DNA of 36,637 nt from an uncultured Bifidobacteriaceae bacterium (GCA_964364975.1 CAYIOH010000001.1:1-36637); one strand, 5' to 3'. Shown: positions 7,865-36,629, counted from the first letter of the stretch. Numbers and translations are program-made. The notes: generated from the letters alone by a model not told the origin.

Positions 7865-8827
7865 TCACTCATGGTCAGGTGTTGTTCTTGGTTTGCGCCG
7901 GGATTCCCGTCTTGGCCCCTCGCTCCGGACTTCAGGCTCGCCGCTCCCCGCTCCTTGCTCGCGGCTAGCGACTCTCAGCTTTTGTTCCAAAAGCCGCAGT
8001 GACAAAATGATTTCCGCCAGCGTACGCTGAAAGACGTAGTACCAACCCCTCCAGCCGTCAAAGATCAGGCCTTTGCCGAGCAGCGTGTAAATGAAGACCA
8101 GGAACGGGGCGAACACGATCTTCCGCCGCACCCGATCGGCCAAGGACAGCCCTGTGAGCCCGGACGACGGACAACGGACCACGGACCACGGACCACAGAT
8201 TTCTGCTTTCAGATTTCTGCTTTCCGCTTTGCCCCATGCTCCCTGCTCCCCGCTCCCGGTTCTCATCAAATGCTCCGCTTCCAGCCTCGCATACCGATCC
8301 TGCTCCCTGAGCCAGCGATCCAGCGGCTTGCGATCGTCGTGATAGAGCACCGAGCGCAGCGGCAGGACCTTCCCCTCGATCTGCACCCGATGCCCATGCC
8401 CCTCGTCGCGATAGCGTGCGCGCTCCTTCTGGTAAAGCACCACCCGTGGCGGATAGAGCGACGCCCGCATTGGACGGCCCCAAACGCAGTAACGAAAACG
8501 GACGGAATAGCCGGCCACTCCTTGCTCCGGCCTCCATGCTCCAAGCTCGCGGACCAACTCCTCCGACAGCAGGTAGTCTGCGTCCAAGGAAAGCACCCAC
8601 GGCGTCCGAATGTGCTGCAAGCCGAAGTTGCACTGCTGCGCAAAGGAATCGAACTCCCGCTGTACGATCCACGCCTGCGGCAGCTTCCTCACCAAGTCAC
8701 ACGTCTCGTCCGTGCTGAAGCTATCGACCACCACGATCTCCTTCGCCCACCTCAGCCGCGACAACGTGCGCTCGATGTTCGGCGCTTCGTTGTACGTCAG
8801 AATGAGCGGCGTGATTTGAAGAAGCAT
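7865..8827 (-). CDS. Glycosyltransferase family 2, carrying an internal heptamer-array insertion and a heptamer-derived C-terminal tail
   Basis: 320 aa. TPLILTYNEAPNIERTLSRL...VVVDSFSTDET...LSLDADY GT2 motifs, and a C-terminal membrane-proximal region GWRGWYYVFQRTL. The segment GSGEQGAWGKAESRNLKAEICGPWSVVRCPSSG coincides with the DNA array at 8162-8259. Confidence 0.85.
   Translation of the reverse strand: MLLQITPLILTYNEAPNIERTLSRLRWAKEIVVVDSFSTDETCDLVRKLPQAWIVQREFDSFAQQCNFGLQHIRTPWVLSLDADYLLSEELVRELGAWRPEQGVAGYSVRFRYCVWGRPMRASLYPPRVVLYQKERARYRDEGHGHRVQIEGKVLPLRSVLYHDDRKPLDRWLREQDRYARLEAEHLMRTGSGEQGAWGKAESRNLKAEICGPWSVVRCPSSGLTGLSLADRVRRKIVFAPFLVFIYTLLGKGLIFDGWRGWYYVFQRTLAEIILSLRLLEQKLRVASREQGAGSGEPEVRSEGPRRESRRKPRTTPDHE
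7922..7984. repeat. Heptamer-periodic array (GCTCnnn phase) forming the C-terminal tail region of the GT2 gene
   Basis: GCTCCGG ACTTCAG GCTCGCC GCTCCCC GCTCCTT GCTCGCG GCTAGCG ACTCTCA GCTTTTG, with GCT recurring every 7 nt. Encodes ...RVASREQGAGSGEPEVRSE.... Confidence 0.5.
8162..8259. repeat. Mosaic heptamer array (14 units) inside the GT2 CDS
   Basis: GGACGAC GGACAAC GGACCAC GGACCAC GGACCAC AGATTTC TGCTTTC AGATTTC TGCTTTC CGCTTTG CCCCATG CTCCCTG CTCCCCG CTCCCGG. Confidence 0.85.
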
Positions 8828-8842
8828 GGACGGAAGGGTGGA

Positions 8843-8904
8843 GGTCAGAGATCAGAGATCAGAGGTCAGCCTTCGGTTTTCAGTCGTCAGTCGTCAGCCG
8901 TCGG
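8843..8904. repeat. Two heptamer arrays flanking a short core, intergenic and overlapping the GT4 stop codon
   Basis: GGTCAGA GATCAGA GATCAGA GGTCAG - ccttcggttt - TCAGTCG TCAGTCG TCAGCCG TCGG. The stop codon at 8894-8896 (TGA on the minus strand) is part of the second array. Confidence 0.85.
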
Positions 8905-10135
8905 AGACCACGCAATCCGGTTTTGGGCCTTGCCCGAGCGCCCAGCAGTAAACGGCGTGCATCTGCTCCGCGACGCCCAGCCAACTGTATCTGGTTTCCA
9001 CCAGTTGGCGGCCGCGGGCACCCATCTCGCGTCTCTCCTCATCAGTCTGGCCTATGGCTTGGCCTAAGGCCAAGGCCAGGTGTTCCGCACCGACGTCGAT
9101 ACACCAGCCGCAACGGTGCGTTTCCAATTCTTCCCACGGTGTGGCACGTGTTGTGATCACGGGCACACCACAGGCGAGCGCTTCGCCGACCACCAGGCCG
9201 AAATTTTCGGAGTAGCTTGGCAGAACGAACAGGTCCGCCCCGCGATAAAGCTCCCACCTGGCCTCACCTGCCACTTGCCCAGCGAATTCAAAGTCGTTCT
9301 CAATGTGTAGTTGACGGGCGAGAGCTTCGAGCTCCCGCTGGTGACAGCCTTCATCCCGGCCCGCGACGACGACCCGCCAACCTTGAGGTCGCACACTTGC
9401 CCAGGCGCACAGCAGATCAGGAAGCCCTTTTATTGGGTGTATCCTCCCCAGGTAGAGAAGGACCTTTGATCTGGAAGCGAAGGGCGAAGGACGAAGGGCG
9501 AAGGGCACTTTGCTCTCGGCTCTTGGCTTTTGGCTTAAATCCGGCACTTCGATCCCATTCGGCACGACCGCGATCGCCTGCCGCAGGCCCACCGCGCGAA
9601 ACTCCCGAGCCTCTTCTGGCGAGGTCGCATGCAACACTTGGGCGCACTGCAAGTCACGACGCTGATACAGCACCCAGGCGATCCGTTTCTTCAGCCCTTT
9701 GAATCGGAGTGCCCAGCTGGAGAGCATCCCACGTGGGCTGACGATACGAGGGATTCTGAATTCCCGGCACACTGTGGCCACCGCGTGGTTCGTCAACAAC
9801 CAAAGCCCGGTATCATGCACGAGTTGCACGTCCCCGTTACGAGAACGATCACGGATAGCAGATTTGAATCGCGGTGTCCACTGGGCACACCGCTCAAGCG
9901 CCGAACTGCAAGAGACGAGGGTTGTCTGTGCCGCCGCACGCGAGGGAATCAGAGGCTCGCCAAACCCCGGACCGTAATCGAGCGAAACCACCTCGACCTT
10001 AACGCCATGGTGCCCCAAAGCCTCACACAGTGCTGGCACACTGCGCGAAGGACCACCGCTTTCGGGATGCAATCCCGCAATCGCAAACAGGACTTTGAAT
10101 GAGGTCACGCTAAGCGGCAGCGCTATGCTCGGCAC
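8894..10135 (-). CDS. Glycosyltransferase family 4
   Basis: 413 aa. GT4 N-domain (GGPSRSV...), C-domain LGRIHPIKG, LPSYSENFGLVVGEALACGVPVITT (EX7E-type). A 21-codon low-complexity insert coincides with the array at 9474-9536. The stop codon lies inside the array at 8880-8904. Confidence 0.8.
   Translation of the reverse strand: MPSIALPLSVTSFKVLFAIAGLHPESGGPSRSVPALCEALGHHGVKVEVVSLDYGPGFGEPLIPSRAAAQTTLVSCSSALERCAQWTPRFKSAIRDRSRNGDVQLVHDTGLWLLTNHAVATVCREFRIPRIVSPRGMLSSWALRFKGLKKRIAWVLYQRRDLQCAQVLHATSPEEAREFRAVGLRQAIAVVPNGIEVPDLSQKPRAESKVPFALRPSPFASRSKVLLYLGRIHPIKGLPDLLCAWASVRPQGWRVVVAGRDEGCHQRELEALARQLHIENDFEFAGQVAGEARWELYRGADLFVLPSYSENFGLVVGEALACGVPVITTRATPWEELETHRCGWCIDVGAEHLALALGQAIGQTDEERREMGARGRQLVETRYSWLGVAEQMHAVYCWALGQGPKPDCVVSDG
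9474..9536. repeat. Mosaic heptamer array (9 units = 63 bp = 21 codons) inside the GT4 CDS
   Basis: GAAGCGA AGGGCGA AGGACGA AGGGCGA AGGGCAC TTTGCTC TCGGCTC TTGGCTT TTGGCTT. Translated on the minus strand as SQKPRAESKVPFALRPSPFAS. Confidence 0.85.
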
Positions 10136-10175
10136 ACGATGCCCGCGCGGCTAGAAGGCAAGACGTGAAGGACCT

Positions 10176-11618
10176 TTATTTTCCGCACTGTGATTCCGTA
10201 CCAACTGCCGGCCACCCAGCGACTACCACATCGGCCGGTTTCGGCAGGCGAAATCTCGTTTTGCGCCGGAACCTTCCTATCGCAACGGCGCGACCGTTTG
10301 CACCCGAAAACACGCTCGCTCCTCGAGCGACGCAATAAGCTGCCGCAACGGCTGCACCAGCAGATGACATCAACTCGGCCAACCTCCCTGTTTGCACAAT
10401 AGACAGCGCAAGAACCGACCAACATAAGAACTTAGTAAGATTTTGCTTCTGCACGCTCGCGGCCATCTGATAGTCGCAATGCCGAGTCAATGATCCCAAC
10501 AGGAAATTGCCCACGAACAACCCGATGATTCCGAAGTTGATGTAAAACTCGAATGAGGGGCCTAGCCCAACGCTGGTAGTTTCTCGAAAATTCAGTCCTG
10601 TGTATTTGGCAACGATTTCTGAGTTGCCTACGTACACCGGCTTTCCTGGCCAGAGGATGCGCGGAATGAGAGCCGTGAAGCCTTCGACTATCGACTGGCC
10701 CCACAAGTATTCCACGTGCCCCGCCTGCAGGTTGTTGACCACTCTGCCGAACATCCATCCCTGCGCCAGCCTCGAAGTGATGACCTTCCGTTGCTGTGGA
10801 TCCCAAGGGTTGAACCACTCAAAGTTCTCGAAGGTATTCCGCATCTGTGCGGCGCGTACGGATAAGGCAGCTCCTTTTTCCCAGAGCAGTTCGCGCATGA
10901 CGGACCGGTCTCGCATGTACGTCTGGAAGATTGACATGCCGAGGTAACACAGGATACAGGCCGGAACGAGCATCCTTAATCTCCGTTGCGTTCTCCTTGT
11001 GATGACTGCCGCGAGAAGAGAAAAGATCATCAGACCGTAGCCAGAGAAACCAAGCAGAAGAACGGAGGCCGCGAAAACCACGGTGGCAATCGCAAACGCG
11101 GCCGTCAGCCCAGTTGATCCTGACACTGAGCCGCCGAAATTCGGGCGGAACAGGTAGCAAGCGAAAAGGGATGCAAGGACGATGGCCTTTCCACCGGAAG
11201 CGAGGGCTGTGGCTGTAGGCAAGCCCCGGACAAGAGGGAAAACCCCAAGCCAGACAACCAAGCCGGCCAGTCCAGTGGAATAAAGTTGCTTCCTTGAAAC
11301 TGTGTATGACCCCGGGCGCGTAGTCGCGCCCGTCGCCACCTTCACCTGCCGACGATGAATCAACAGCAAACCAAGGACGAAAGCCAAAAAGCTGATAGTG
11401 CCGTGCCTCTGAGAAACGAGGGCGAGCTGGGTTTCTTCCGAGGACCGGTACGAAAGTGAGACCAGCGCTGGAATCCAGTCATTCAATAAGGCAAAGACCA
11501 AGTACATGAGTGGATAAGCAGTGGTTGATATCCTTTGATCCAGGAACCGTCGTAGCATCAAAACGGCTGCGGACAGACGGATTGCCAGGAGGGCGGTGAT
11601 TTCAAATTCAACTTCCAC
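10176..11618 (-). CDS. Polytopic membrane protein, O-antigen polymerase/ligase-like (Wzy/WaaL superfamily) candidate
   Basis: 480-aa ORF with about 10 hydrophobic segments and one larger loop. Its position inside a glycan cluster and its locally lower GC are typical of wzy. No sequence motif was firmly recognised. Confidence 0.45.
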   Translation of the reverse strand: MEVEFEITALLAIRLSAAVLMLRRFLDQRISTTAYPLMYLVFALLNDWIPALVSLSYRSSEETQLALVSQRHGTISFLAFVLGLLLIHRRQVKVATGATTRPGSYTVSRKQLYSTGLAGLVVWLGVFPLVRGLPTATALASGGKAIVLASLFACYLFRPNFGGSVSGSTGLTAAFAIATVVFAASVLLLGFSGYGLMIFSLLAAVITRRTQRRLRMLVPACILCYLGMSIFQTYMRDRSVMRELLWEKGAALSVRAAQMRNTFENFEWFNPWDPQQRKVITSRLAQGWMFGRVVNNLQAGHVEYLWGQSIVEGFTALIPRILWPGKPVYVGNSEIVAKYTGLNFRETTSVGLGPSFEFYINFGIIGLFVGNFLLGSLTRHCDYQMAASVQKQNLTKFLCWSVLALSIVQTGRLAELMSSAGAAVAAAYCVARGASVFSGANGRAVAIGRFRRKTRFRLPKPADVVVAGWPAVGTESQCGK

Positions 11619-13103: not shown

Positions 13104-13127
13104 ACCGCAATAGCGTTCCTTCAGGTG

Positions 13128-14537
13128 TCATCGCTCGTCCTTCGTAGTGACCAACTTTCGTACGGCCTCCACCGTTCCTTTCACCGCTTCCTCTAAACTG
13201 TAAGCCCGCATTTTTTCCTCCAGCGCCGGTGTGAAATCATACCCGGCCAATTTCATTTCCCCGAGCGCCATCAACCGGCCAGCCAGCGCTGTGACATCGG
13301 CGACAGGGAAAGCGAATCCGGTTCTTCCTCCCTCAATCAAGTCCGGCGCGCAACCCACAGCCACCGAAACAATCGCCGGCAACCCACACGCCATCGCTTC
13401 GTTGACCACCAGTCCCCACGTCTCGCTCTCTGAAGGCAGGACCAGCACCTCGGCGGCGGCATAATAACGCGGCAGTTCTGACTGGTTCTTGAAGCCAGTG
13501 AAGTGAACGCGCAGATTTTCCCGCGCCGCCAGTTCGCGCAATTCGTTCTCCAGTTCGCCAGCCCCGACGAATACGGCGAGCACATTCATCCCGGTAGGGC
13601 GCGTCACTCCGTGCGCGCCGATAGGTTGAATGGGCGTTCCGGACGGCGCGCACGGAGTGACGCGCCCTACCTTGGGATCCGCACGAAGGGTGAGTTCGCC
13701 TCGCAACTTCGCCATCGCCTGCAGTAAATCTTGCGGCCGCTTCTTCGGTATGAATTTTCCCACGAACAAAACCACTAATGTCCGCCGGCAGTCCTGTGGT
13801 CCTGTAGTCCCGTTGTCCTCATCCGTTACACCCCACTGTCTTCTAATTTCAGCTTTCTGCTTTCGCGCTATTTCTGCTTTCCCCCCGAACCATTCATTAT
13901 TCACAAAATGCGGCGCGAAAAATATTTTCCCCTCCGGCACGCCGTAATGCGCGAGATATTCCGCGTTGCGTCGGCCAACCGGTAGATACCCGGCGAATTG
14001 CCGGAGCAGTAGTCGATAGGCAATGGCCTTGACCGAGCGCTTAAGCCAGGAGCGGGGAGTACCGAGTTGGGAATCGCCCCGCACAAGAATCGGCACGCCC
14101 GCGCGCCGACATGCCCGCACCGCCTGCCAATACGATTTCAAATGCCAACCGCAAACGATGAAGGCGTCGAAGCGCTTCGCGCTTTGACCACTGACCACTG
14201 ACCACTGACCACTGACCTCCATCCCATGCTTTGTTGTCCCGTTGTCCGTTGTCCGCTGTCCCGTGGTCCCAGAAATGATGTCTGCAATTTCTGGCGTATC
14301 GCAGCCGAAGAAATTATTCACGCCAGGCCGTGCTGATACGTTGATCAGGAAACGGTGGTTGTAACCCGACAGCAAGTCCACGTCCCAATCGAACGCCACA
14401 CCAAACCCGGCCTTCCCCTGCTCCGCCGCCGATTGCCGGTGTGCAAAAAAACCCTCCAAATCCACTTCCTTTGCCAACCCGCGAAACCAAGGCGCCAGGT
14501 ATTGGATCGGATGACTTGCCAAAACTCCCAGTCGCAT
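13128..14537 (-). CDS. Glycosyltransferase family 4 interrupted in frame by three repeat-derived segments
   Basis: 469 aa. GT4/GT1-fold motifs FVGKFIPKKRPQDLL, VLPSESETWGLVVNEAMACGLPAIVS. Three non-family-like segments coincide with DNA repeats at 14186-14269, 13791-13881 and 13593-13671. Confidence 0.8.
   Translation of the reverse strand: MRLGVLASHPIQYLAPWFRGLAKEVDLEGFFAHRQSAAEQGKAGFGVAFDWDVDLLSGYNHRFLINVSARPGVNNFFGCDTPEIADIISGTTGQRTTDNGTTKHGMEVSGQWSVVSGQSAKRFDAFIVCGWHLKSYWQAVRACRRAGVPILVRGDSQLGTPRSWLKRSVKAIAYRLLLRQFAGYLPVGRRNAEYLAHYGVPEGKIFFAPHFVNNEWFGGKAEIARKQKAEIRRQWGVTDEDNGTTGPQDCRRTLVVLFVGKFIPKKRPQDLLQAMAKLRGELTLRADPKVGRVTPCAPSGTPIQPIGAHGVTRPTGMNVLAVFVGAGELENELRELAARENLRVHFTGFKNQSELPRYYAAAEVLVLPSESETWGLVVNEAMACGLPAIVSVAVGCAPDLIEGGRTGFAFPVADVTALAGRLMALGEMKLAGYDFTPALEEKMRAYSLEEAVKGTVEAVRKLVTTKDER
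13593..13671. repeat. Perfect 28-bp-stem palindromic element (REP/RPE-like) inside the GT4 CDS
   Basis: GGTAGGGCGCGTCACTCCGTGCGCGCCG (13593-13620) and its exact reverse complement CGGCGCGCACGGAGTGACGCGCCCTACC (13644-13671), with a 23-nt loop. Translated in frame as ...VGRVTPCAPSGTPIQPIGAHGVTRPT.... Confidence 0.9.
13791..13881. repeat. Mosaic heptamer array inside the GT4 CDS
   Basis: GTCCTGT GGTCCTG TAGTCCC GTTGTCC TCATCCG ... TTTCAGC TTTCTGC TTTCGCG CTATTTC TGCTTTC. Shares the 11-mer TTTCTGCTTTC (two copies here) and GTGGTCC/GTTGTCC units with 8162-8259 and 14186-14269. Confidence 0.75.
14186..14269. repeat. Mosaic heptamer array (12 units = 84 bp = 28 codons) with a perfect (GACCACT)4 tract, inside the GT4 CDS
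   Basis: GACCACT x4 (14186-14213) GACCTCC ATCCCAT GCTTTGT TGTCCCG TTGTCCG TTGTCCG CTGTCCC GTGGTCC. Encodes ...TTGQRTTDNGTTKHGMEVSGQWSVVSGQ.... Confidence 0.9.
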
Positions 14538-17471: not shown

Positions 17472-18758
17472 TCAGCAACTGATCTTTTCGCGAACAAGCC
17501 GATCGAAGAGGCCGGCATACTGCCGCGCGATCCCCCAAGAGGAATATTTTTCAAATGCGGCCGCATTTCGCTGCGGTATCAGAGCAATACCGCCGAATAG
17601 TATCTGACGCAGAGCCTCAGCTAACTCAGGCATGCGTGTCTCGGGGCCATGCCCTCCATCGTAAGTCACAATTCGGACACCACCAAGCTCGCGTGCCAAG
17701 ACGCAGACGGTGCTTGCCTCGTGAAAGAGAGCGAACATCGGTTTGCCTGAAAGCCAACAAGGAAACAGTTTCGACGCGGTGTAGTGACTGTCGGTGGACC
17801 CCAGCAGCAATAGCAAATCGGCAAGCTGCATGGTGCGCAGGGCATCCAAGTAGCCAATCCGCCTCGGTTCCAGCCGGACGCTCATGCTCAAACTGAAGGA
17901 GGCGGCCCATTGCATAATTCTGTGCGAATCGCGCCCGTCCGGCTGGGCGCTCGTGCCGATCAGATGGAGCTTCAACCGGAAACCCGAGTCGGCCAGCGCA
18001 AGACGAGCCATGGCGCCGAATAATGCGTTCAACGCTGGCAGCATTCGCTCGGTGATCGTGCCGAGGTAGGCAAGGTCCAAGACGCCGTTGGTCTTCTCAA
18101 TCCAACTCCGGCCCTTCTTGCGGGCTGTCTCGTGGTCACTTGCCTCGGCACCAATGGGAATGATCTCAACCGGCACACCATTCCGAAGCAAACGCCGCTG
18201 CCGCAAGGTGGCAAGCGTTTCGTCTGACACCGCTGTGAGAGCGTCCGCACGCGGCACTACGCCGGGTTCCAGCTTGCGTGCCAGCCAGTGCGCGAGGCCC
18301 GCCTTGCTCAAACGCGGTTGTCGCGCCCCCGCGTCGCTCACCCACGGGTCCTGATAATCGAGCACGAACGGGACGTTGAATTTCCGCTTCGCCCAGGCGC
18401 CCACCAGGCTCGTGTAGCCGGGCAGCACCGTCGCAAAAACCAGGGCCACTTCTCCGTCCGTGATCAACTCGCCCACGCGCCGCCGCAACGTCCACTGCCC
18501 GCGCAACGCAATGTCGCCGAAACCTAGTGCGCGGCAAATCCGCGCCGGCCACGCGCCCACGCGCTCCACGCGCAATCCCTCCGGCAACAGCGCCAGCGAC
18601 GCCGCATCGCCCGGTTCCTCGTAATGGCGCGGATGGACCGTGACCACGATGGGTTCCCAACCGAACTCCGCGAGGTGGCCGGCCATCAGACGTACGCGAT
18701 GCACGCCGGCCAGATTGCTCGGCGTGAAGTAAGGCGAAATCAGCAGCGCGCGCTTCAT
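17472..18758 (-). CDS. Glycosyltransferase (GT4-like/GT-B fold)
   Basis: 428 aa. MKRALLISPYFTPSNLAGVHRVRLMAGHLAEFGWEPIVVTV is a GT-B N-domain start. The C-domain is less canonical. Confidence 0.55.
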   Translation of the reverse strand: MKRALLISPYFTPSNLAGVHRVRLMAGHLAEFGWEPIVVTVHPRHYEEPGDAASLALLPEGLRVERVGAWPARICRALGFGDIALRGQWTLRRRVGELITDGEVALVFATVLPGYTSLVGAWAKRKFNVPFVLDYQDPWVSDAGARQPRLSKAGLAHWLARKLEPGVVPRADALTAVSDETLATLRQRRLLRNGVPVEIIPIGAEASDHETARKKGRSWIEKTNGVLDLAYLGTITERMLPALNALFGAMARLALADSGFRLKLHLIGTSAQPDGRDSHRIMQWAASFSLSMSVRLEPRRIGYLDALRTMQLADLLLLLGSTDSHYTASKLFPCWLSGKPMFALFHEASTVCVLARELGGVRIVTYDGGHGPETRMPELAEALRQILFGGIALIPQRNAAAFEKYSSWGIARQYAGLFDRLVREKISC

Positions 18759-28590: not shown

Positions 28591-29420
28591 GTTGAAGCAT
28601 TCCTGGGGCGACCCCACCCGGAGACAGAAAACTCATATTCCCCCGAGGCAATCATCAGAAGGACCTGGAACACGACGAAAACTCTACCACGCCATCGCCG
28701 CCGCTTGCGGAGGGATCTGAGCATCCCGGGAGTGATACTGCGCCCGTGGGCAACATAGCCGCTCGTCGCCAGCAACTCGCGCAAGGCCTCCACAGTCCAA
28801 CGAGTGAGAAAATCCGGCGGATATCCAGTGCGACGGTCAACGCCGGGGAGCTTCAGCGGCCGGCGGAGACTCGGGGCCGTGATAAAAACCTGCGCTCGCG
28901 GAAGTCGGGCACGCAAGGCTGCCATAAATACCGCGGGTTGCGCCACACGGACGAGGCTTTCCAAAATAATCACGGCGTCAGCCTCCGACCAATCCGGCGG
29001 CAGTTCAGCGGGGTTGGCTGTCTGCATTGACGTGAAGCCATGCTTACGCAGTACGGAGACGTGAGAGGCAAGCGGGTCCGCCAAGCGCACCTCGTAGCCA
29101 AAGGACCTCAACTGCCATGCAAAACGTCCGGTCTCGGCGAATAGTTCCACAATCTCCGCGCCGGGGCTCAAGTTTCCTCGCACCCATTCGAGCGCCGCTT
29201 GCTCGTTTGGCGTCAGCCAAGTCTTGATCAGTTCGGGTGTGGCCCTTCCAAGCAAGTCATCTGCGTCCTCTGAAAAGTCAGGGTAAACCGGCCCGCTTAT
29301 CGGTTGGGGCTCGAGCCATTGCAACCCCGTCCGCCCGCAGCGAAAGTAAGCGCAGCCAGGCAGCCACTCGACCGCCTCCGCATGCGTTTCACGCCCCGTG
29401 ATAGGGTGTTTCAAGATCAT
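28587..29420 (-). CDS. Putative SAM-dependent methyltransferase-like protein
   Basis: The ORF is open to 29582. The ATG at 29420 overlaps the wzt stop (ATGA). [14 protein letters not shown]...VRLADP...[10 protein letters not shown] is weakly class-I-MTase-like. Function is tentative. Confidence 0.4.
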
Positions 29421-30778
29421 GAGGAAATTCGCCTCGAACTCCATGGAAGCAGCGGCGCGACCAGGCCGAGCCGAGCGTCGTTGACATCGGCGATAATACC
29501 GGCCACTGGTTCGATCGAAAAACTCGCGGCTTGATCCACTGAGAGCACCCCACACACCATCGGGATATCGATGCCAACCCAAAGGTAGTAGCGTCCACGG
29601 TTGAGCAGGTGAGCGGGAAACTCCACCTCGGAAACGTACGCGCCCGCTGGACGCGCTTGGAGTTTGCCTCCGAGCGAATCGCAGTCCGTCGTGGTTAACA
29701 CCACCGTGGTGTCCTGAGCGTGCAAACGGAAACCCAAACGCAATTGCGGCATGGCGGCAGTCAATTCGTAGGTCAGTCGCACACGGAAAGGTTCGTGGTT
29801 CGGCAAGAATGAGGAAGGATTGCCTTCTGAATTGAGAACTTCGACGGAGCGAAGAATCAACGGATGCTCGGCAGCTTTGAGGTTGAGCTTGCCGTTGTCG
29901 GAGTGCCGAGCGGCGCTGTCATTGAGGTAACGGGCGATCACTCTCGCGGGATCGCTCTGATCAGTCAACCGTCCAGCGTTCAGCAGAATGGCGCGAGAGC
30001 AAAGATTGCCAACTGTTCCCATGTTGTGGCTGACGAACAGAACGGTGCGTCCTTGCTGGTGGGCCACTTCGTCCATCTTACCCAAACATTTCTTCTGAAA
30101 CGACGTGTCCCCTACTGCCAGCACTTCGTCCACCACCAGAATTTCCGGTTCCAAATGCGCCGCCACCGCAAACGCCAGCCGCACATACATGCCGCTGCTG
30201 TAGTGTTTCACCGGCGTGTCCAGAAACCTTTCCACTTCCGCAAACGCCACGATTTCGTCGAACTTCTTTTTGATCTCCGCCCGGCTCATTCCCAGGATGG
30301 CGCCGTTCAGGAAGATGTTTTCCCGCCCCGTCAATTCGGGATGGAACCCCGTTCCCACTTCCAACAAACTCGCCACGCGCCCTTTGATGCGTATCTTACC
30401 CGTAGTCGGCTCGGTGATGCGGCTGAGAATTTTGAGCAGCGTGCTTTTCCCCGCGCCGTTGCGCCCGATGATGCCGACCACTTCGCCTTGTTTGACCTCG
30501 AAGGAAACGTCGCGCAAGGCCCAAAAATCTTCGGTTCGTGGAAGACTGGAGTTAGAAGACGGGAGATGGGAGCCGGGAGATCGAACCGAACTGCTATCTG
30601 CTATCTTCGACCTGCCAAAGCCCCAGAGGCGACGGGCGAGGGAGCGGGGAGCACAGAGCGCGGAGCCGGCCTTCTCGGCCAGCACGTCGCGCAGGGCGGT
30701 GTAGCGCTGCCGCTGGGCCTGGTGTTGCAGACGGTATTTCTTGCCGAGGTTCTCGACCGATATGATCGCTTCGCTCAT
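29417..30778 (-). CDS. wzt: O-antigen/polysaccharide ABC exporter ATP-binding protein (Wzt/TagH type) with C-terminal glycan-binding (Wzt_C-like) domain and a 42-codon repeat-derived insert
   Basis: The ATG at 30778 ([17 protein letters not shown]) is the family-typical start; the ORF is open to 30913. Walker [10 protein letters not shown], signature YSSGM, Walker B ILVVDE. A ~170-aa C-terminal beta-rich extension follows. The insert SALCAP...NSSLP coincides with the array at 30541-30666. Confidence 0.9.
30541..30666. repeat. Mosaic heptamer array (18 units = 126 bp = 42 codons) inside the wzt CDS
   Basis: GAAGACT GGAGTTA GAAGACG GGAGATG GGAGCCG GGAGATC GAACCGA ACTGCTA TCTGCTA TCTTCGA CCTGCCA AAGCCCC AGAGGCG ACGGGCG AGGGAGC GGGGAGC ACAGAGC GCGGAGC. 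Confidence 0.8.
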
Positions 30779-30809
30779 TTTCCAAAAAAGCAACAATCTA
30801 AAACGCTGA

Positions 30810-30854
30810 CAAACTGAAAGTTGAAGATTGCAAGGCTGGCACGCCAAACTGAAA
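30810..30854. promoter_or_regulatory. 10-bp direct repeat CAAACTGAAA x2 (35-bp spacing) in the AT-rich gap upstream of wzt
   Basis: CAAACTGAAA at 30810-30819 and 30845-30854. This is the only clearly AT-rich stretch directly 5' of the wzt start (30778). A regulatory role is speculative. Confidence 0.2.
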
Positions 30855-30866
30855 TCATTGCTGCTT

Positions 30867-31558
30867 TCAGCGCTCCCTTTCGGCACGCCTGACCCACGAA
30901 TCGTGAATCTCAACGAATGTGGTGCGCAGATCCCTGGTGATGGTCCAACTGGGGTAGTGGGTCTTCATCTTGTCGAGGTTCGAGATGTAGCAGATGTGGT
31001 CGCCTTGCCGGTTTTGGTCCACATATACGTAATTCATTTTCTTGCCGGAGATTTCCGAGATCAAGTCAAAGGCTTCCAGAATGGAAACGGAGTTGGCGCG
31101 GCTGCCGCCCAGGTTGTAAACCTCGCCGCAGCGCGGCGACTCAATAAATCGGCGCATGAATTGCACGACATCGTGGCTGTGGATGTTGTCGCGCACCTGC
31201 TTGCCCTTGTAACCGAAAACCTTGTACGCGCGGCCCGCCAGGTTACACTTGATGAGGTAGCTAGGAAGCCGTGCAACTCGACGCCGCTGTGGTTCGGTCC
31301 CGTAAGGCAACCGCCGCGCAGGCAGCAGGCGGGCATCCCGAAGTAGCGGCCGTATTCCTGTACCATGACGTCCGCCGCCACCTTCGATGCGCCGAAAATG
31401 GAGTGCTTACTCTGGTCAATGCGGAAGGTTTCCCGGATGCCATCCGCGTAGGCCGGATCGGCATAGTCCCATCGCTGGTCGAGTTCCATGAGTGGAATCT
31501 CGTTGGGCGCGTCGCCATAAACCTTGTTCGTGCTCATGTGGACGAATGGGGCTATTGC
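30867..31558 (-). pseudogene. C-terminal two-thirds of an SDR epimerase (CDP-paratose-2-epimerase-like family), frameshifted
   Basis: Two overlapping ORF fragments (31061-31537 and 30867-31310). They read [20 protein letters not shown]...GASKVAAD...VELHGFL and then, in another frame, [31 protein letters not shown]...GDHICYISNL. The frame switch is near 31262. An in-frame TAG at 31559-31561 bounds the homology. Confidence 0.75.
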
Positions 31559-31570
31559 CTAGCTTTCGAC

Positions 31571-31739
31571 GGTGATGATGACGGAGTCACCCATCGGGAT
31601 AGAAGACACGGCTCTTGCTGGAAGATGGCGGATAGCAGATGGAAGATTGTTCCACTACTTCCCGTTTCGCTTTTCCAACTGTAATCTCTGGTCTTTGATC
31701 TATCATCTTCATACTTCCAACTCCCATCTTCGCGCGGCT
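31571..31739. repeat. Heptamer-periodic spacer between the wzm stop and the epimerase C-terminal pseudogene fragment
   Basis: GAAGATG GCGGATA GCAGATG GAAGATT GTTCCAC TACTTCC CGTTTCG CTTTTCC AACTGTA ATCTCTG GTCTTTG ATCTATC ATCTTCA TACTTCC AACTCCC ATCTTCG. GAAGAT-type units on the left and their complements (ATCTTC) on the right give imperfect dyad symmetry. Confidence 0.75.
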
Positions 31740-31744
31740 GGCGC

Positions 31745-32611
31745 TCAGATAACGTCTGCAAACGTGCGCTCCATCTTCCGGAAGTACCAGATACCTAGAA
31801 AGAGCAGCACAACCACCAGCGCTATAGAAAGACAGAACCCCGGCCAGTAGATCTTGCTGTGACCGCCTAGGATTGCCCAACGGAATCCGTCAATAACACC
31901 CACCATCGGGTTAAGGGAATAAATGGTGAAGAGAGTGCCGCCAAAGCGTTCACGGATGACCGAGCTGCTGAAGCCGACGGGCGAGGCATAAAGACCAAAC
32001 TGGACGAGAAACGGAATCACATAACGGAAATCACGGTACTTGACGTTGAGGGCGGTGATCAGAAGGCCCGGCCCAATGGCGGCGAGAAAGGCCAGCGCAA
32101 TGAACAGGGGCAGCGTCACAATGCGCCAATCCGGCCAGAATTGAAACCAAGCCATCATGGCCACCAGGATGCCAAAGGCGATCAGGAAATCTACAAAGCT
32201 GGTGATGACCGCGCCGGCCGGGATGATCATGCGGGGGAAATAGACTTTGGAGATGAGATTGGCGTTGCCCACCAGGCTCTGGCTGGCTGAGGACAGCGAG
32301 GTGGAGAAGAACATCCAAGGCAGCATGGCCGCGAAGACCATGACCGAGTAGGGGGCGGTGCCCTCAGTCGGCAGCTTCGCGACTTTGCCGAACACGACGG
32401 TCATGATGAGCATGGTCAGCAGCGGCTGGATAAGCGCCCACGCAACGCCAATGACAGTCTGCTTGTAACGGACCGCAATGTCCCGCCAAGCCAGAATGTA
32501 AAAGAGCTCACGGTAGCGCCAAAGGTCGCGCCAGTATTGGCGTTGCGTGCGCCCCGGTTCGATGATCAATTCGTGGGACACGATGGGGTTGGGAGCTAGC
32601 TCATGGTGCAT
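31745..32611 (-). CDS. wzm: ABC-2 type polysaccharide exporter permease
   Basis: WRDLWRYRELFYILAWRDIAVRYKQTVIGVAWALIQPLL is the Wzm/ABC-2 N-terminal signature, followed by 6 TM segments. The ATG at 32611 is proposed as the start. The ORF stays open to 32800 because it runs in frame out of the epimerase N-terminal fragment. Confidence 0.85.
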   Translation of the reverse strand: MHHELAPNPIVSHELIIEPGRTQRQYWRDLWRYRELFYILAWRDIAVRYKQTVIGVAWALIQPLLTMLIMTVVFGKVAKLPTEGTAPYSVMVFAAMLPWMFFSTSLSSASQSLVGNANLISKVYFPRMIIPAGAVITSFVDFLIAFGILVAMMAWFQFWPDWRIVTLPLFIALAFLAAIGPGLLITALNVKYRDFRYVIPFLVQFGLYASPVGFSSSVIRERFGGTLFTIYSLNPMVGVIDGFRWAILGGHSKIYWPGFCLSIALVVVLLFLGIWYFRKMERTFADVI

Positions 32612-32793: not shown

Positions 32794-32827
32794 GGTTCAC
32801 TTGTCATCAGCGATCCGTGGTCCGTCG

Positions 32828-33451
32828 TCAGTATTTGACGACGTAGTAAGCGAACTTAAGGACCTCGTTTTGGAAAGCAAGCAGCCCTTCCTCGTGCTGC
32901 CAATAGTTGGCCGCCGTGTAGTCGCTCGAGGCGACGGCCTCAGTGCGAATATCAACGCTCGTTCCGTTGAGCGCTTTGTGAAAAAGCCATTTCACGCGCC
33001 GCGTATGGAAAAGATCGGTGGGTATGATGAGTCGTTTGGCGTGGCTTGCCTTCACCCATCCCTGCACAGCCAAGGATTCATCGCGGGTGCTCATCACTCC
33101 GTTACCGATCTCGATCACGGCTTCAGGCGGCACCTGGTTGCTGAACAAAACCAACTTTGCGACGTGAGTATGCGGCAGGGTGATTCCCAATTCATCGGTA
33201 TAGTTGCTGCGCACGTTCAGCAGCAGGATTCGGGGTGCGAGTCCCTGCTGAAAAAGCCGCGCGGCTTCAAACGGGCGCGTGTCCAATCCGCCGCCCAAAA
33301 CCACGATAGCGTCGGCCTTTTCCAGCTTGTCATTGACGATCCAAGCGTCCGCTAAACCCCGCAAGATCGGGGCGCGGAAGAAGTATGCGACGAGGAGCAA
33401 TGCGCCGAAGGCGCAGGCGCATGAGACAGCTCCTTTGAAGATTTGTCGCAT
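32828..33451 (-). CDS. DUF218 (YdcF/ElyC/SanA-like) protein
   Basis: 207 aa. N-terminal TM helix, ADAIVVLGGGLDTRPFEAARLFQQGLAPRILL and ...THMPRA-like region (LFHTRRV) typical of DUF218. Confidence 0.7.
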   Translation of the reverse strand: MRQIFKGAVSCACAFGALLLVAYFFRAPILRGLADAWIVNDKLEKADAIVVLGGGLDTRPFEAARLFQQGLAPRILLLNVRSNYTDELGITLPHTHVAKLVLFSNQVPPEAVIEIGNGVMSTRDESLAVQGWVKASHAKRLIIPTDLFHTRRVKWLFHKALNGTSVDIRTEAVASSDYTAANYWQHEEGLLAFQNEVLKFAYYVVKY

Positions 33452-33477
33452 CCGGTGCTCAACCCCAGTCTTCAGCG

Positions 33478-34743
33478 TCAGTTTTGTTGGATTGATGAGG
33501 CGGCTGCCGCTTTCGGCGGCGAAAGCGCTTCCAGTCTGGGAACAAGCCGTTCCACGATCTCATGCACGCGAGTTTGGAAGCTTTCGAACGAAAAATCATT
33601 AAGGCTGGCTGAAACAAATCCGCGAGGCCACTTCAGCGCCGCCAGGATTCCTTCCCGGATCTCTGCGGGGTTCCTCGGGTCAACGATGAATCCCAGCTTC
33701 CCACCGCCCACCACCTCGCAGCTCGCGTCGGCTTTGCTCGCAACGACCGGAATTCCACAAGCCATCGCTTCCAAGTAAACGATACCGAATCCTTCACCCC
33801 AGCCCGGCATCACGAAGGCATCCGCCATGCGGTAATGATCCACTTTTTCGTCCTCTGGGATTCGGCCGGCGAAAACGACCTGCGCGGGGTTGAGCGTGGA
33901 GCGTGGAGCGTGGAGGGTCGGGGAGTGGGGCTTCGATACCTCACCCAACCCTCTCCCCGATCGATGCGGAGAGGGCGATGAGTTAGCGCGCGCGCAGTCG
34001 GTCACGGAAAGGCCGAGTGATTGCGCCTTGTTCATCAAGCGCTCCCGGTCCGTTCCATCGCCGACGACGAGGTAGCAAAGACTTGGGATTTCTTTCGACA
34101 AATCAGGCAGAACTTCCATGACTCTGTCCACTCCCTTGTACCGTTCCTGCGCCGAAAGGCGTGCCACGGTCAGCAGGACTGTCCGGTCGCGCAGACAATA
34201 ACGGTCGAGCAGTTGCGAGTTTTTTGGGCCGGGGCGGAAAGCAGCCAACTCGATGCAGTTGGGCAAAATGAAAGTCCGAACGCCGTCCAATCGCGCCCAG
34301 CCCAGAAATCGCTGCTTCGTAAACTCGCTTACCGCAATCAGGGCGTTGATTCTCCTGACCAATCGATTGACCAGCCAACTGCGAGTCGGTTGCCACGCGT
34401 CAATGCCATGGATTACCAACGCGACCGGCGCACGGCAAAACAATCGCGCCGCCAATGCGACCGATAGCAGATTGATGTGGCCGCAAATCAGAAGGTCAGG
34501 GGTCGGAAGTCGGAGAACGGTGGTCAAAACCGTTTTGATATAGCGCAGTTTGCTGCCGACGCCGGAGGTGACGTAGTTAAGCTTCGTCGGCAGTGCGCCG
34601 GGCGGCTCGGGCATCAAGCGTGGAACAGCCACAACTTCTTCAACGTCCTGGGCCGCACAGAGCGCGGTCAGCAGATCGCGATTGAACTTCGCGATGCCTC
34701 CGAAACCGCCGAAGGCGTCCGTCACGAGAACCAGAATGCGCAT
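33478..34743 (-). CDS. Glycosyltransferase family 4 with ~40-codon repeat-derived insert
   Basis: 421 aa. MRILVLVTDAFGGFGGIAKFNRDL N-terminus; VMPGWGEGFGIVYLEAMACGIPVVAS C-domain. The segment VTDCARANSSPSPHRSGRGLGEVSKPHSPTLHAPRSTLNPA coincides with 33892-33982. The start ATG shares one base with the asnB stop (TGATG). Confidence 0.8.
   Translation of the reverse strand: MRILVLVTDAFGGFGGIAKFNRDLLTALCAAQDVEEVVAVPRLMPEPPGALPTKLNYVTSGVGSKLRYIKTVLTTVLRLPTPDLLICGHINLLSVALAARLFCRAPVALVIHGIDAWQPTRSWLVNRLVRRINALIAVSEFTKQRFLGWARLDGVRTFILPNCIELAAFRPGPKNSQLLDRYCLRDRTVLLTVARLSAQERYKGVDRVMEVLPDLSKEIPSLCYLVVGDGTDRERLMNKAQSLGLSVTDCARANSSPSPHRSGRGLGEVSKPHSPTLHAPRSTLNPAQVVFAGRIPEDEKVDHYRMADAFVMPGWGEGFGIVYLEAMACGIPVVASKADASCEVVGGGKLGFIVDPRNPAEIREGILAALKWPRGFVSASLNDFSFESFQTRVHEIVERLVPRLEALSPPKAAAASSIQQN
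33892..33982. repeat. Heptamer array (GAGCGTG)3... plus small hairpin, inside the GT4 CDS
   Basis: GAGCGTG x3 GAGGGTC GGGGAGT GGGGCTT CGATACC TCACCCA ACCCTCT CCCCGAT CGATGCG GAGAGGG CGATGAG. CCCTCTCC (33949-33956) pairs with GGAGAGGG (33968-33975). Confidence 0.8.
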
Positions 34744-36629
34744 CAGTTTCGAGTGAACCGATCGTAAACCTGCCTGGCCCAGCCACGAAGGCCGCGAGAA
34801 TTCGCGCGGGGTTGAGCGTTGAGGGAAAAGGTTTGAGAGTCGCGCAAAAGCCAGTCGCGGACCGGGACGGAAAAGCCGGTCTTGGGCCGGGCAAGCAGGG
34901 CAGCAGGGAGCGGAGAGCGGGGAGTAAGGGCCATGTCGCGCTTGGTCGGAGGCGTCTCGCTGGCGAGCAACGGAGCGACCGCGTGCAGGACCGCCACGTC
35001 CACCAGCGGCACGCGGATTTCCAGCGAGTGAGCCATGCCTGCCCAGTCCGAATCACGCAGGAGTTGGTTGCGCATGTACCAGCACATCTCGAGAGCACTG
35101 ACGCGCACGCGGCCAGAGTTCAGAGGACAGAAGTCAGAATTTGGAACTGATCGCCGATCTCTGATCGCCGATCTCTGAGAAAGCAGACCAGCGGTCAAAT
35201 TCAACAAGGCAAGGGTGTTGAGCTCTTCCCAGCCTTCGCGCACGAGGTCCGGCTCGAGCAATTCAGGCAGTTCCCAAGGCATGAACAGACCACGGCGGAG
35301 CAGGTAGGCATCGGCGTAGCTGGAGCCGTATTCGAGCAGCCCGGCGTATTTGGGCGAGGTGAAGCGATTGAGCACGGGGGTGGAAATCACACGAAGCGCG
35401 CGGCCAAGCGAACGGGCAAAAGGCAAAGGGCGAAGGGCCTTCACGAGGCGCGGAATTTCGCGAAAGCTGGGATAGCCGCCGAACAATTCGTCGCCGCCCA
35501 AACCGGACAGGGCGACCTTCAGCGAAGCGCGCGCGGCGGCGAAGCTGACGAAGTAGGTGTTGACGCCATCCGTGCTCGGCTGATCCATTGCGTCGAAAAG
35601 GCGATTAACGTGAGTTTGAAAATCTCGACGCGCGACCCAAATGGTCTGGTGTTGTGCGCCGTATTGGCGGGCGACGGCTTCGGCGAACGGGACTTCATCG
35701 TTGGCCGTCCCACGAAATTCCTCGAATCCCAGTGTGACCGTGCGCAAACGGCCGCCTTGCTCGGCGGCCAGCGCGGCAAGTGTCGTCGAGTCCAAGCCGG
35801 ATGACAGAAACACACCGACGGGGACATCGGCGATCAGGTGGTGCCGGATTGTGTCCTGGAGAGCGAAGCGCAACAAGTCGTGGAGTTGAGGGCTGGGGGC
35901 TGAGGGTTGAGAGTTCGAGCGTTCGGCATGCGAAAGGATTTCCGTGATTGAGCAGAATTTGCGCTCCCGTCGCCCGCCGCCCTGGCCAACCCAAAGCGTC
36001 GCACCCGGCGGCAAGGACCGGATGGTCTTGAACAGCGTGTAGGGTTCAGGCACGTGTCCCCACAGGAAGAAACCGACGTGCCCGGCCGGATCGGGTGTCT
36101 TCTCAATGTATCCGCCCGCGAGCAACGCCTTCACTTGCGAGGCCGCTCGAAATGTCCTGCCGTCATCCGCAAAATATAGCGGTTTGATGCCGAACGGGTC
36201 GCGCGCCAAAAGCAAGCCGCGTTGCTCGCCATCCCAGAGCGCAAAGGCATACATGCCGCGCAGATCGTTCATCATCGCCTCGCCTTTCTGCGCGTAGAGC
36301 CGGAGCAACACTTCCGTGTCGCTGTTGGATTTGAACACATGGCCTTGTTGTTCGAGCGCCGCGCGCAGTTCGCGGTAGTTGTAAATCTCGCCGTTGAAAA
36401 CGATCGCCAGTTGAAACTCCGGCAGCAGCATGGGCTGCGCACCGGCCGGGGACAGATCAATGATTGAAAGCCGGCGATGGCCAAGACCAACGCGGTGCAA
36501 AGGATCGAACCACTCTCCTGCCCCATCAGGACCACGCAGCGTCATGTGGTCGCGGATGGCGCGCAGTTCCCCGTCATTCACGCCGGGCGCGTCAGAGTTG
36601 TAGGCGAAGATGGCTGCTATGCCACACAT
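34743..36629 (-). CDS. asnB: Asparagine synthase (glutamine-hydrolysing) family amidotransferase
   Basis: 628 aa. MCGIA N-terminal nucleophile, HRRLSIIDLS, GEIYNYRELR, and the PP-loop VGVFLSSGLDST. Three clear repeat-derived segments and one tentative segment lie in the C-terminal half. Confidence 0.9.
   Translation of the reverse strand: MCGIAAIFAYNSDAPGVNDGELRAIRDHMTLRGPDGAGEWFDPLHRVGLGHRRLSIIDLSPAGAQPMLLPEFQLAIVFNGEIYNYRELRAALEQQGHVFKSNSDTEVLLRLYAQKGEAMMNDLRGMYAFALWDGEQRGLLLARDPFGIKPLYFADDGRTFRAASQVKALLAGGYIEKTPDPAGHVGFFLWGHVPEPYTLFKTIRSLPPGATLWVGQGGGRRERKFCSITEILSHAERSNSQPSAPSPQLHDLLRFALQDTIRHHLIADVPVGVFLSSGLDSTTLAALAAEQGGRLRTVTLGFEEFRGTANDEVPFAEAVARQYGAQHQTIWVARRDFQTHVNRLFDAMDQPSTDGVNTYFVSFAAARASLKVALSGLGGDELFGGYPSFREIPRLVKALRPLPFARSLGRALRVISTPVLNRFTSPKYAGLLEYGSSYADAYLLRRGLFMPWELPELLEPDLVREGWEELNTLALLNLTAGLLSQRSAIRDRRSVPNSDFCPLNSGRVRVSALEMCWYMRNQLLRDSDWAGMAHSLEIRVPLVDVAVLHAVAPLLASETPPTKRDMALTPRSPLPAALLARPKTGFSVPVRDWLLRDSQTFSLNAQPRANSRGLRGWARQVYDRFTRN
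34801..34842. repeat. Short heptamer array (about 6 units) near the 3' end of asnB
   Basis: TTCGCGC GGGGTTG AGCGTTG AGGGAAA AGGTTTG AGAGTCG. Encodes SQTFSLNAQPRANS. Same GnGTTGA unit family as 35883-35924. Confidence 0.55.
35114..35197. repeat. Mosaic heptamer array (about 12 units) inside asnB
   Basis: CAGAGTT CAGAGGA CAGAAGT CAGAATT TGGAACT GATCGCC GATCTCT GATCGCC GATCTCT GAGAAAG CAGACCA GCGGTCA. GATCTCTGATC (35156-35166) is the exact reverse complement of GATCAGAGATC at 8850-8860. Confidence 0.8.
35883..35924. repeat. Heptamer array (6 units = 42 bp = 14 codons) inside asnB
   Basis: GAGTTGA GGGCTGG GGGCTGA GGGTTGA GAGTTCG AGCGTTC. Occupies codons 236-249 exactly (ERSNSQPSAPSPQL), just upstream of the PP-loop. 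Confidence 0.75.

Follow-up and report, generated by a model that had tools for sequence, protein, structure and literature searches.

Within a 36,637-bp contig carrying a surface-polysaccharide locus (CAYIOH010000001.1, hereafter the window), short arrays of tandem 7-nt units lie in frame inside six conserved genes. These genes encode a GT2 glycosyltransferase, three GT4 glycosyltransferases (GT4_8894, GT4_13128 and GT4_33478), Wzt and AsnB, and all six open reading frames (ORFs) are open and unbroken. Because of their 7-nt periodicity and their absence from orthologues, we consider the arrays to be repeats at the DNA level and not native linkers. Our preferred explanation, to which we assign a probability of about 60%, is that hairpin-forming heptamer repeats resembling the short tandemly repeated repetitive (STRR) sequences of cyanobacteria, normally intercistronic, entered or overwrote permissive coding loops and were filtered there for reading frame and stop codons.

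Heptanucleotide arrays in a surface-polysaccharide locus

The 7-nt periodicity is genuine and greatly exceeds chance expectation. Tandem Repeats Finder returned 20 period-7 rows in the window, and a lag scan with a threshold of at least 12/14 matches detected 12 arrays at lag 7, compared with none or one at lags 4–6 and 8–13 and six at lag 14. Shuffling in 3-mer blocks yielded 0.03–0.17 arrays at lag 7, and a stricter scan found nine arrays versus zero. The initial annotation of this DNA, which had described strings of 7-bp units at many sites, is borne out by this excess over the shuffled null. Its motif coordinates proved exact, with TTTCTGCTTTC occurring four times across 8200–8224 and 13854–13881, and with the complementary pairs GGACCAC/GTGGTCC, GGACAAC/GTTGTCC and GATCAGAGATC (8850)/GATCTCTGATC (35156) all in place. 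The hosts are those it had named, GT2, the three GT4s, Wzt and AsnB; its count of at least seven genes is reduced to six clear ones, since a patch in the carbamoyltransferase is native sequence. Ten of the 12 strong arrays are intragenic, and the unit families inside the window genes are GTGGTCA/GGACCAC, AAAGCAG, GAAGGGC, GGGAGCA and CTGAYCT.

The array segments are similar to one another, with best local alignment scores of 29–38 against a maximum of 25 in ~400 random window pairs. Some similarities extend beyond the repeats. The flank GGRTGGAGGTCAG is common to the intergenic array (8836) and loop 1 of GT4_13128 (14224), the 16-nt flank GCGCGGGGTTGAGCGT plus its array is common to GT4_33478 (33882–33920) and AsnB (34804), and AAGCGAA(C)GGGC is found at 9474 in GT4_8894 and at 35406 in AsnB, the GT4_8894 array matching AsnB 35406–35438 at 29/33 nt. 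Taken together, the shared flanks indicate that sequence may have been copied between loci, beyond independent slippage alone. The earlier proposal that units are shared across loci thus holds for units and for non-repeat flanks, but one of the two TTTCTGCTTTC loci (13854–13881) is native coding sequence.

To define the inserts, each host protein was aligned with 120 homologues, complemented by one syntenic locus (L123, GCA_900696445.1) and one AlphaFold2 model (Table 1). In pairwise alignment, GT2 is 265 aa long in L123 and 320 aa in the window, and its in-frame insertion combines (GGGAGCR)n, (AAAGCAG/AAATCTG)n and (GTGGTCC)n units in a mosaic that forms a long imperfect hairpin. The clean AsnB insertion is present with identical sequence in a second assembly (P0175). 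At site 2 of GT4_13128, 118/120 homologues have zero occupancy, and 57/60 nt are shared with the closest relative (P0002, locus L272). Occupancy is 0–50% for the GT4_33478 insert, as judged against the GT4 halves of 25 AsnB-GT4 fusion homologues, and 0–30% for the Wzt linker among 120 homologues, of which the verrucomicrobial ones carry peptides of the GQWSAVSG and SISHLPSP types at this position. The AsnB interdomain linker is occupied in homologues by peptides such as KSEIRNQ, RTTDDG, AESRKQK, FNFQLS and PLRLDRGEG.

The alignments therefore agree in large part with the claim that each array interrupts family-typical sequence, as most arrays are absent from orthologues, but the claim fails at 13854–13881, at carbamoyltransferase 6357–6377, at AsnB 35414–35438, where the homologue alignment contains no indel, and at the GT4_8894 linker. 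Several arrays substitute for native loop sequence at zero net length change. Two candidate inserts were rejected. The segment 13833–13880 (KAEIARKQKAEIRRQW; 13854–13881 encodes KAEIARKQKAEI, with TTTCTGCTTTC twice) encodes a native helix that is conserved in essentially all homologues and modelled with a predicted local distance difference test (pLDDT) score of 95–96, and carbamoyltransferase 6357–6377 is native, with no indel. Several array lengths had also been read as multiples of 21 bp. As a general rule this does not hold for the orthologue-defined inserts, which measure 96, ~90–102, 36, 60, 21, ~90 and ~123 nt; insert lengths are divisible by 3 because an open frame demands it.

The core of the GT2 insert (8193–8224) is 81% identical over 32 nt to native GT4_13128 sequence at 13833–13864, which codes for KQKAEIRRQW. 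Either a conserved K/A/E/R helix resembles the (AAAGCAG)n family by chance, or local templating has left a trace here. We dropped it as evidence for local templating, since ~0.05 such matches are expected by chance, which is marginal, and (AAAGCAG)n is widespread.

Table 1 Host genes (Pfam) and array regions in the window
Feature	Coordinates	Strand	Description
GT2 (host gene)	7865–8827	-	
GT4_8894 (host gene)	8894–10135	-	
GT4_13128 (host gene)	13128–14537	-	
Wzt (host gene)	29417–30778	-	
GT4_33478 (host gene)	33478–34743	-	
AsnB (host gene)	34743–36629	-	
GT2 C-terminal tail	7868–7972	-	~20 aa longer than in syntenic L123; (GGGAGCG)n at 7936–7954
GT2 in-frame insertion	8150–8245	-	32 aa (96 nt); missing from syntenic L123; arrays reach 8259
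Intergenic arrays between GT4_8894 and GT2	8840–8904	-	(CTGAYCT)n and (CTGACGA)n
GT4_8894 interdomain linker	9464–9536	-	(GCCCTTC)n and (AAGCCAR)n; arrays at 9476–9536; length same as in L123
GT4_13128 site-2 insertion	13779–13814	-	12 aa (NGTTGPQDCRRT); GGACYACA units, period ~8
GT4_13128 loop-1 insertion	14172–14273	-	~30 aa; coding strand (GGACAAC)n-loop-(GTGGTCA)n; main hot spot of the family
Wzt N-terminal variable linker	30533–30664	-	Weak arrays at 30557–30580, 30591–30606 and 30641–30666; 7-aa insert SALCAPR
Degenerate 7-periodic tract, epimerase pseudogene fragment to wzm	31600–31745		GGAAGAT...; CTnnnnn units; below the lag-7 thresholds
Remnant at the DUF218/wzm junction	32802–32832		Short (GTGGTCC)2; inverted-repeat pairs with 8163–8200
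GT4_33478 composite insert	33880–34002	-	~40 aa; (CACGCTC)n at 33887–33920 beside a CCCTCTCC...GGAGAGGG hairpin at ~33938–33985
AsnB C-terminal variable patch	34803–34842	-	FSLNAQPRA; flank and array shared with GT4_33478
AsnB clean in-frame insertion	35127–35186	-	20 aa (60 nt); (TCAGAGATCGGCGA)2.3; zero occupancy in 120/120 homologues
AsnB loop	35406–35438	-	(GCCCTTY)n-like patch; no indel; related to the GT4_8894 array
AsnB linker between glutamine amidotransferase (GATase) and synthetase domains	35883–35918	-	(CTCARCC)n; hypervariable hot spot in homologues

The intragenic arrays are largely open in every frame. On the coding strand, 16 of 19 contain no stop in any frame, whereas the same holds for 57% of random genic 30-mers (p = 0.011); opposite-strand stops are found in 6/19. 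Both intergenic arrays have a stop in each of the three frames when read in the same orientation as the genes, and the TGA stop of GT4_8894 comes from the first unit of this region. The unit is GGACCAC or GGACAAC in the coding-strand copies of the window and TGACCAC in intergenic copies elsewhere. Orientation and unit variants both fit the idea, put forward in the initial annotation, that arrays in genes are filtered for open frames.

In three array regions, arrays with partly complementary units make up the arms of an imperfect hairpin. For the GT2 insert, the folding z-scores are -5.9 for coding-strand RNA and -3.6 for plus-strand RNA, and -4.0 (coding) and -1.05 (plus) for DNA. Loop 1 of GT4_13128 scores -2.3 on both RNA strands and -2.8 (coding) and -2.3 (plus) as DNA, and the GT4_8894 linker scores -0.4 for coding-strand and -4.2 for plus-strand RNA.

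Homologues of the window proteins carry the names Verrucomicrobia, Verrucomicrobiae or Pedosphaera, and going by these names the metagenome-assembled genome to which the window belongs would be verrucomicrobial and Pedosphaera-like. Nearly every gene lies on the minus strand, and together they form one surface-polysaccharide locus (Pfam) encoding an initiating transferase, GDP-mannose dehydratase, epimerases, carbamoyltransferase, GT2, several GT4s, GT9, methyl-, acetyl- and pyruvyl-transferases, Wzm/Wzt and AsnB. Of the 36,637 bases, 34,367 are taken up by genes, and ~6% of the contig is intergenic. Between wzt and wzm, a 147-aa ORF (30867–31310) matches the profile of the NAD-dependent epimerase family over the C-terminal third alone (positions 173–240 of 240). 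This ORF, apparently a gene fragment or pseudogene, is flanked by degenerate 7-periodic sequence (30780–31745). The tract 31600–31745, which forms an inverted pair with 30591–30617, is probably what had been listed as a pseudogene junction. At position 34743 the AsnB stop overlaps the GT4_33478 start; the two are separate genes in the window, and ~50/120 of the listed AsnB homologues are ~1000-aa fusions of AsnB with a GT4 or GT9 domain (e.g. P0122, P0124 and P0144). A short tandem repeat of 8–9 nt, CCACGCGCT, is located at 18549–18573, at the 5' end of a GT4-like gene (17472–18758); it has an inverted partner 3.4 kb away (15061–15091/18544–18574) and stands outside the heptamer families.

Repeat turnover in the hot-spot loops of GT4_13128

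Aligned with 119 homologues, GT4_13128 comprises a core of ~393 columns and three extra segments, residues 90–120 (loop 1), 242–253 (site 2) and 282–318, encoded by nt 14172–14273, 13779–13814 and 13584–13694, respectively. In the AlphaFold2 model (70 sequences; pLDDT 87.6, predicted template modelling score 0.87), these segments are the sole low-confidence, structure-less stretches, and each connects a helix and a strand in the GT-B fold. Site 2 is a coil with a pLDDT of 55, and loop 1, between H83–89 and E125–128, has values of 58–63. According to the model, the array-encoded segments of GT4_13128 sit on the protein surface outside the fold core. Most arrays are found in disordered loops, interdomain linkers or termini.

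The same positions are used across the family. Inserts of at least 8 aa follow core column 90 in 70/120 proteins, column 239 in 39/120 and column 264 in 34/120. Their peptides include GPRTTDH from (GGACCAC)n, SGQWSVV from (GTGGTCA)n, and KAESRKQ and FSFQLSA from (AAAGCAG)n and its complement, as well as QPSTLN-type peptides and the small-palindrome products TSPNPLPERGGEG, HLTPALSPERRGSG and ADLPVGQDAR. Read against the DNA units, such peptides would make sense only as translated repeats. The DNA of three orthologous loci confirmed 7-nt arrays at the insert positions, with nested composites present.

On a neighbour-joining tree of the core columns of 120 homologues, the type of loop-1 insert changes 15–19 times among 22–27 carriers, and the distribution of the KAESRKQ type is close to random. 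In the closest relative (L272, P0002; ~80% DNA identity), the loop-1 hairpin is present with shuffled units, and a (CTCAACC)n array occupies exactly the place where the window holds a GTAG palindrome. The inserts are therefore inherited and evolve fast through unit changes, and their replacement at the same sites has occurred independently. The comparison of relatives at the same sites, suggested in the initial annotation as a check, thus revealed that repeat families turn over in the same loops even among the closest relatives.

The GTAG palindrome of GT4_13128 (13593–13671) is not heptameric. It is a perfect palindrome with 28-nt arms and a 23-nt loop (GGTAGGGCGCGTCACTCCGTGCGCGCCG and its complement, starting with GGTAGGGCGCG), stands in frame and encodes VGRVTPCAPS...GAHGVTRPT (aa 282–318). 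From its sequence it looks like a recent GTAG-type doublet of repetitive extragenic palindromic (REP) elements, known as a REPIN, in a coding loop. A second small palindrome family, CTCACCC..CCCTCTCCCC-loop-GGAGAGGG, is represented in the window at ~33938–33985 in GT4_33478 and in the orthologue inserts of L123 and L125. It encodes SPSPHRSGRGLGEVS, HLTPALSPERRGSG, TSPNPLPERGGEG and PLRLDRGEGxGEVS, and recurs in homologues of GT4, AsnB and Wzt at the same hot-spot loops, often nested within heptamer arrays. In L272, a methyltransferase-like upstream ORF continues through a repeat-derived linker (…RSPTRHKSSHLLPTRRVGDRRSTLT-MRLGIL…) into GT4 (979–3231; P0002, 750 aa), which is possibly a repeat-mediated gene fusion or a gene-calling artefact.

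Distribution in other genomes and viral contigs

We scanned 185,579 species genomes for three consecutive (K)GACCAC units and obtained at least 120 loci. The matches listed cover at least eight phyla (Acidobacteriota, Planctomycetota, Verrucomicrobiota, Chloroflexota, Cyanobacteria, Bacteroidota, Firmicutes and Actinomycetota) and include many Pyrinomonadaceae and Acidobacteriaceae, Oscillospiraceae, Streptomyces and, among the cyanobacteria, Nostoc, Anabaena, Calothrix, Coleofasciculus and Microcoleus. Because isolates are among the matches, the arrays are not an assembly artefact. Cultured or complete carriers include Haloferula sargassicola NBRC 104335, Acidobacteria bacterium AB60, Nostoc sp. 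NIES-4103 and a closed Caldilineaceae metagenome-assembled genome (OZ244818). The listed loci (884 kb) contain 328 lag-7 arrays, compared with 7–60 at other lags, made of many different units, some of which match the window families (GAAGGAC, GGTCCGT/ACGGACA and AGAAGGC).

In these loci the arrays are mostly intergenic. Only 26% lie within long open spans, compared with 76% of random positions. Neighbouring arrays are inverted in 37 cases (and 18 near-matches) and direct in 6 (and 2), and inverted pairs typically span the stop codon of one gene to the start codon of the next. The pairs also have a polarity: (GTGGTCA)n forms the left arm and (TGACCAC)n the right arm in 23 pairs versus 4 (e.g. 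L035 2127–2271 and L102 7447–7619), and an ORF entering from either side therefore meets stops only in the distal arm.

Viral contigs contributed 95 stretches with (K)GACCAC arrays. (TGACCAC)3 occurs in 66 viral stretches and (AAAGCAG)3 in 49, compared with 2 and 1 for two composition-matched permutations, and (TGACCAC)3 is ~30–60 times commoner than composition-matched permutations. In one 10-kb viral contig with 61% GC (L129, IMGVR_UViG_3300047586_000106), nearly all gaps separating co-directional genes consist of a (CAGTGGY)n-loop-(RCCACTG)n hairpin that extends from stop to start, which points to a systematic function between cistrons, or to dense colonisation, in a phage-like genome.

Arrays also stand in frame in housekeeping genes of other lineages, namely (Pfam) in Mfd of Chloroflexia, PurL of Bacteroidales, CopA of Anaerolineae, PheT of Pyrinomonadaceae, PyrK of Planctomycetia and TrpF of Deltaproteobacteria, and further in a GT9 of Deltaproteobacteria. 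Alignment to structures in the Protein Data Bank (PDB) showed that the TrpF array stands in for a native loop with almost no change in length and that the PyrK arrays add merely 3–4 residues. A peculiarity of a high-GC polysaccharide locus, as the initial annotation had implied, is thus not upheld: the same units are found in many phyla and in viral contigs, mostly as intergenic inverted-pair hairpins, and additionally within housekeeping genes.

Origin and significance of the arrays

We then propose a model for how the arrays came to lie in the window genes. In its usual form the repeat would be an inverted array pair, (X)n-spacer-(rcX)n, where rcX is the complementary unit, forming a hairpin in a short intergenic gap. 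The array pool of the genome would serve as template for ectopic copying, through recombination or template switching, by which array sequence enters or overwrites a gene; this accounts for the shared flanks and the length-neutral replacements. The arrays may then lengthen, shorten and shuffle units by replication slippage; we place slippage at this later stage because perfect central units have decayed edges and units are shuffled among close relatives. Finally, purifying selection would retain copies in disordered surface loops, interdomain linkers and termini, provided that their total length is divisible by 3 and that they are stop-free in three frames, as in coding GGACCAC versus intergenic TGACCAC.

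Both the copying mechanism and the lack of function of the peptides themselves are what we infer, and several points weigh against the model. The array statistics of the window cover a single 36,637-bp contig, and translation of the arrays is assumed. The flank similarities extend over only 12–20 nt and are singly of marginal significance. A universal hairpin model was rejected, as only 3 of ~10 array regions beat shuffles and the other seven do not. Among the compared sequences there is no insertion event with exact boundaries; at the ~65% protein identity shared with the nearest orthologues, no target-site duplication is identifiable; and the window showed no associated enzyme. In addition, the unit specificity across phyla exceeds what slippage alone would give and hints at a sequence-specific factor or at selection.

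It is tempting to speculate, at clearly lower confidence than the model itself, that the heptamer-tandem hairpins (GTGGTCA/TGACCAC and AAAGCAG) constitute one sequence-specific, pan-bacterial, phage-borne class. They would be self-propagating intercistronic elements, recognised or written by a conserved trans-acting factor and able to invade or overwrite coding DNA in frame, a cross-phylum counterpart of the Rickettsia palindromic elements (RPEs). If so, the cyanobacterial STRR sequences would be merely the branch that was noticed first.

Three other explanations are each unlikely. One is an enzyme-driven miniature mobile element, whose inverted arrays would be the terminal repeats of an element like a miniature inverted-repeat transposable element or a REPIN, which a dedicated transposase would move or a reverse transcriptase would write, with phages taking it from phylum to phylum. 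The strong unit specificity (66 and 49 versus 2 and 1), the fixed left-right arrangement (23 versus 4 pairs), the 95 viral stretches, the flanks shared between loci, the nested composite inserts and a bona fide GTAG REPIN within GT4_13128 itself are all in line with it. However, the spacers between arms are unrelated and resemble ordinary intergenic sequence, arm length and units change by degrees, the window revealed neither conserved ends nor target duplications nor linked transposase genes, and length-neutral replacement is unlike cut-and-paste or copy-and-paste transposition.

We give equally little weight to functional RNA or DNA structures, in which operon-internal processing, stabilising or pausing hairpins (RNase III sites or terminator-like stems) would be accommodated in coding loops since hardly any intergenic space is left in the operon. 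Three inserts do fold significantly, the same arrays elsewhere are stop-to-start intercistronic hairpins, in nearly every gap of viral L129, and a role in transcript stabilisation or in translational coupling has been put forward for STRR hairpins (PMC2670836). However, strand preference is inconsistent, GT4_8894 folding well on the antisense strand only, most intragenic arrays fold no better than shuffles, same-site content differs among close relatives, and no known RNA family in Rfam matched in the window.

Contingency loci are a similarly improbable reading, in which gain or loss of one 7-nt unit would shift the frame and switch the glycosyltransferases, Wzt or AsnB, thereby diversifying the surface polysaccharide. 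The unit length is not divisible by 3, the arrays are within ORFs of a surface-polysaccharide locus, Tandem Repeats Finder reports a perfect (TGACCAC)4.7 in GT4_13128 and (GAGCGTG)3.4 in GT4_33478, and phase variation by simple sequence repeats (SSRs) is established in lipopolysaccharide (LPS) genes (PMC4692102). However, the same arrays are in frame in essential genes elsewhere (Mfd, PurL, PheT, PyrK and TrpF), where switching would harm, the tracts are short, mostly imperfect mosaics located mid-gene or 3' rather than 5'-proximal, and the majority of arrays in other genomes are intergenic. Native low-complexity linkers under protein-level selection, with no DNA-level element, are very improbable: some arrays do lie in naturally variable linkers (Wzt and AsnB interdomain) and two arrays of the initial annotation are indeed native, but a 7-nt period reads the units in three frames, which peptide selection cannot yield, intergenic DNA and both strands contain the same nucleotide units, and orthologues lacking the inserts contradict this reading for most arrays.

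The model of intercistronic heptamer hairpins entering coding loops relates the window to several known systems. The comparison with cyanobacterial STRR sequences and RPEs made in the initial annotation is apt, with respect to the tandem 7-bp units and to the in-frame inserts absent from orthologues. Mazel et al. reportedly gave TTGGTCA as the STRR2 unit in 1990, and TGACCAC is one base off the complement of this unit. STRR sequences are tandem 7-bp repeats that form hairpins between cyanobacterial genes, e.g. hupS-hupL, and share with the arrays the 7-bp tandem units and the many dispersed copies (PMC2670836); the same unit is present in Nostoc and Anabaena. As to intergenic hairpins, the arrays of other genomes are mostly inverted pairs between genes, but 10 of the 12 strong arrays of the window are intragenic and three of its regions fold significantly. 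They have been described as intergenic and of unknown function, whereas the arrays here are in frame inside conserved enzymes; and they are cyanobacterial, whereas the host here is verrucomicrobial, with the units found in at least eight phyla among the matches listed and in viral contigs.

RPEs are said by Ogata et al. (2000) to be elements of 100–150 bp with a family consensus that stand in frame in unrelated conserved genes, encode a surface peptide with function apparently retained, and were read as selfish DNA filtered by selection. RPEs are also mentioned in PMC3733652. The in-frame insertions absent from orthologues (GT2 +32 aa, AsnB +20 aa and the GT4 loops) and the low-pLDDT surface coils of GT4_13128 recall them. 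Unlike RPEs, the window copies, of 21–123 nt, share just 7-nt units and flanks of 12–20 nt, without a fixed consensus, and some overwrite native sequence without adding length. REP elements and REPINs are short hairpin repeats mainly between co-directional genes, sometimes in ORFs, and are known in Verrucomicrobia and other bacteria of the Planctomycetes–Verrucomicrobia–Chlamydiae (PVC) group (PMC3733652). A GTAG palindrome occupies another hot spot of the same GT4, whereas the heptamer arrays have no GTAG/CGTC tag, are internally tandem and vary in arm length. No gene for the REP-associated tyrosine transposase (RAYT) was found by Pfam among the genes of the window.

Heptamer SSRs are in excess in bacteria, and the G-rich GGGNATC repeats of Xanthomonas and Nostoc vary in length between relatives and form occasional inverted pairs (PMC4692102). 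A polymerase-slippage hypothesis for 7-nt units is attributed to Mrazek (2007) in the summary given there. The GGGNATC repeats form G-quadruplexes, are intergenic and depleted from coding sequence, whereas the window units are not G-tracts and many are intragenic. With the phase-variable SSRs of LPS and capsule genes the arrays share intragenic tandem repeats in glycosyltransferase genes and a unit not divisible by 3, but the window tracts are short, imperfect and mid-gene, and the same repeats are found in housekeeping genes. In the literature, with subscription-only papers partly outside the search, we found no account of heptamer arrays in frame in conserved genes, nor of a cross-phylum, phage-associated, unit-specific heptamer distribution, and nothing relevant on heptanucleotide repeats in Verrucomicrobia or PVC bacteria or on in-frame STRR sequences.

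The window is one good example of a wider, apparently under-described phenomenon, and the arrays have the look of 'selfish' DNA that is widespread and tolerated within proteins. Repeat DNA of this 7-nt period can pass through all three frames in working enzymes, and its copies provide a natural map of insertion-tolerant loops in GT-B glycosyltransferases, AsnB and Wzt. The inserts inflate protein length, create spurious low-complexity 'domains' and occasionally fuse genes, which matters for the annotation of metagenome-assembled genomes. The STRR phenomenon has, to our knowledge, been unexplained since 1990. It is no cyanobacterial curiosity: it appears to be cross-phylum, phage-associated and strongly unit-specific, and its mechanism thus becomes testable by comparative genomics.

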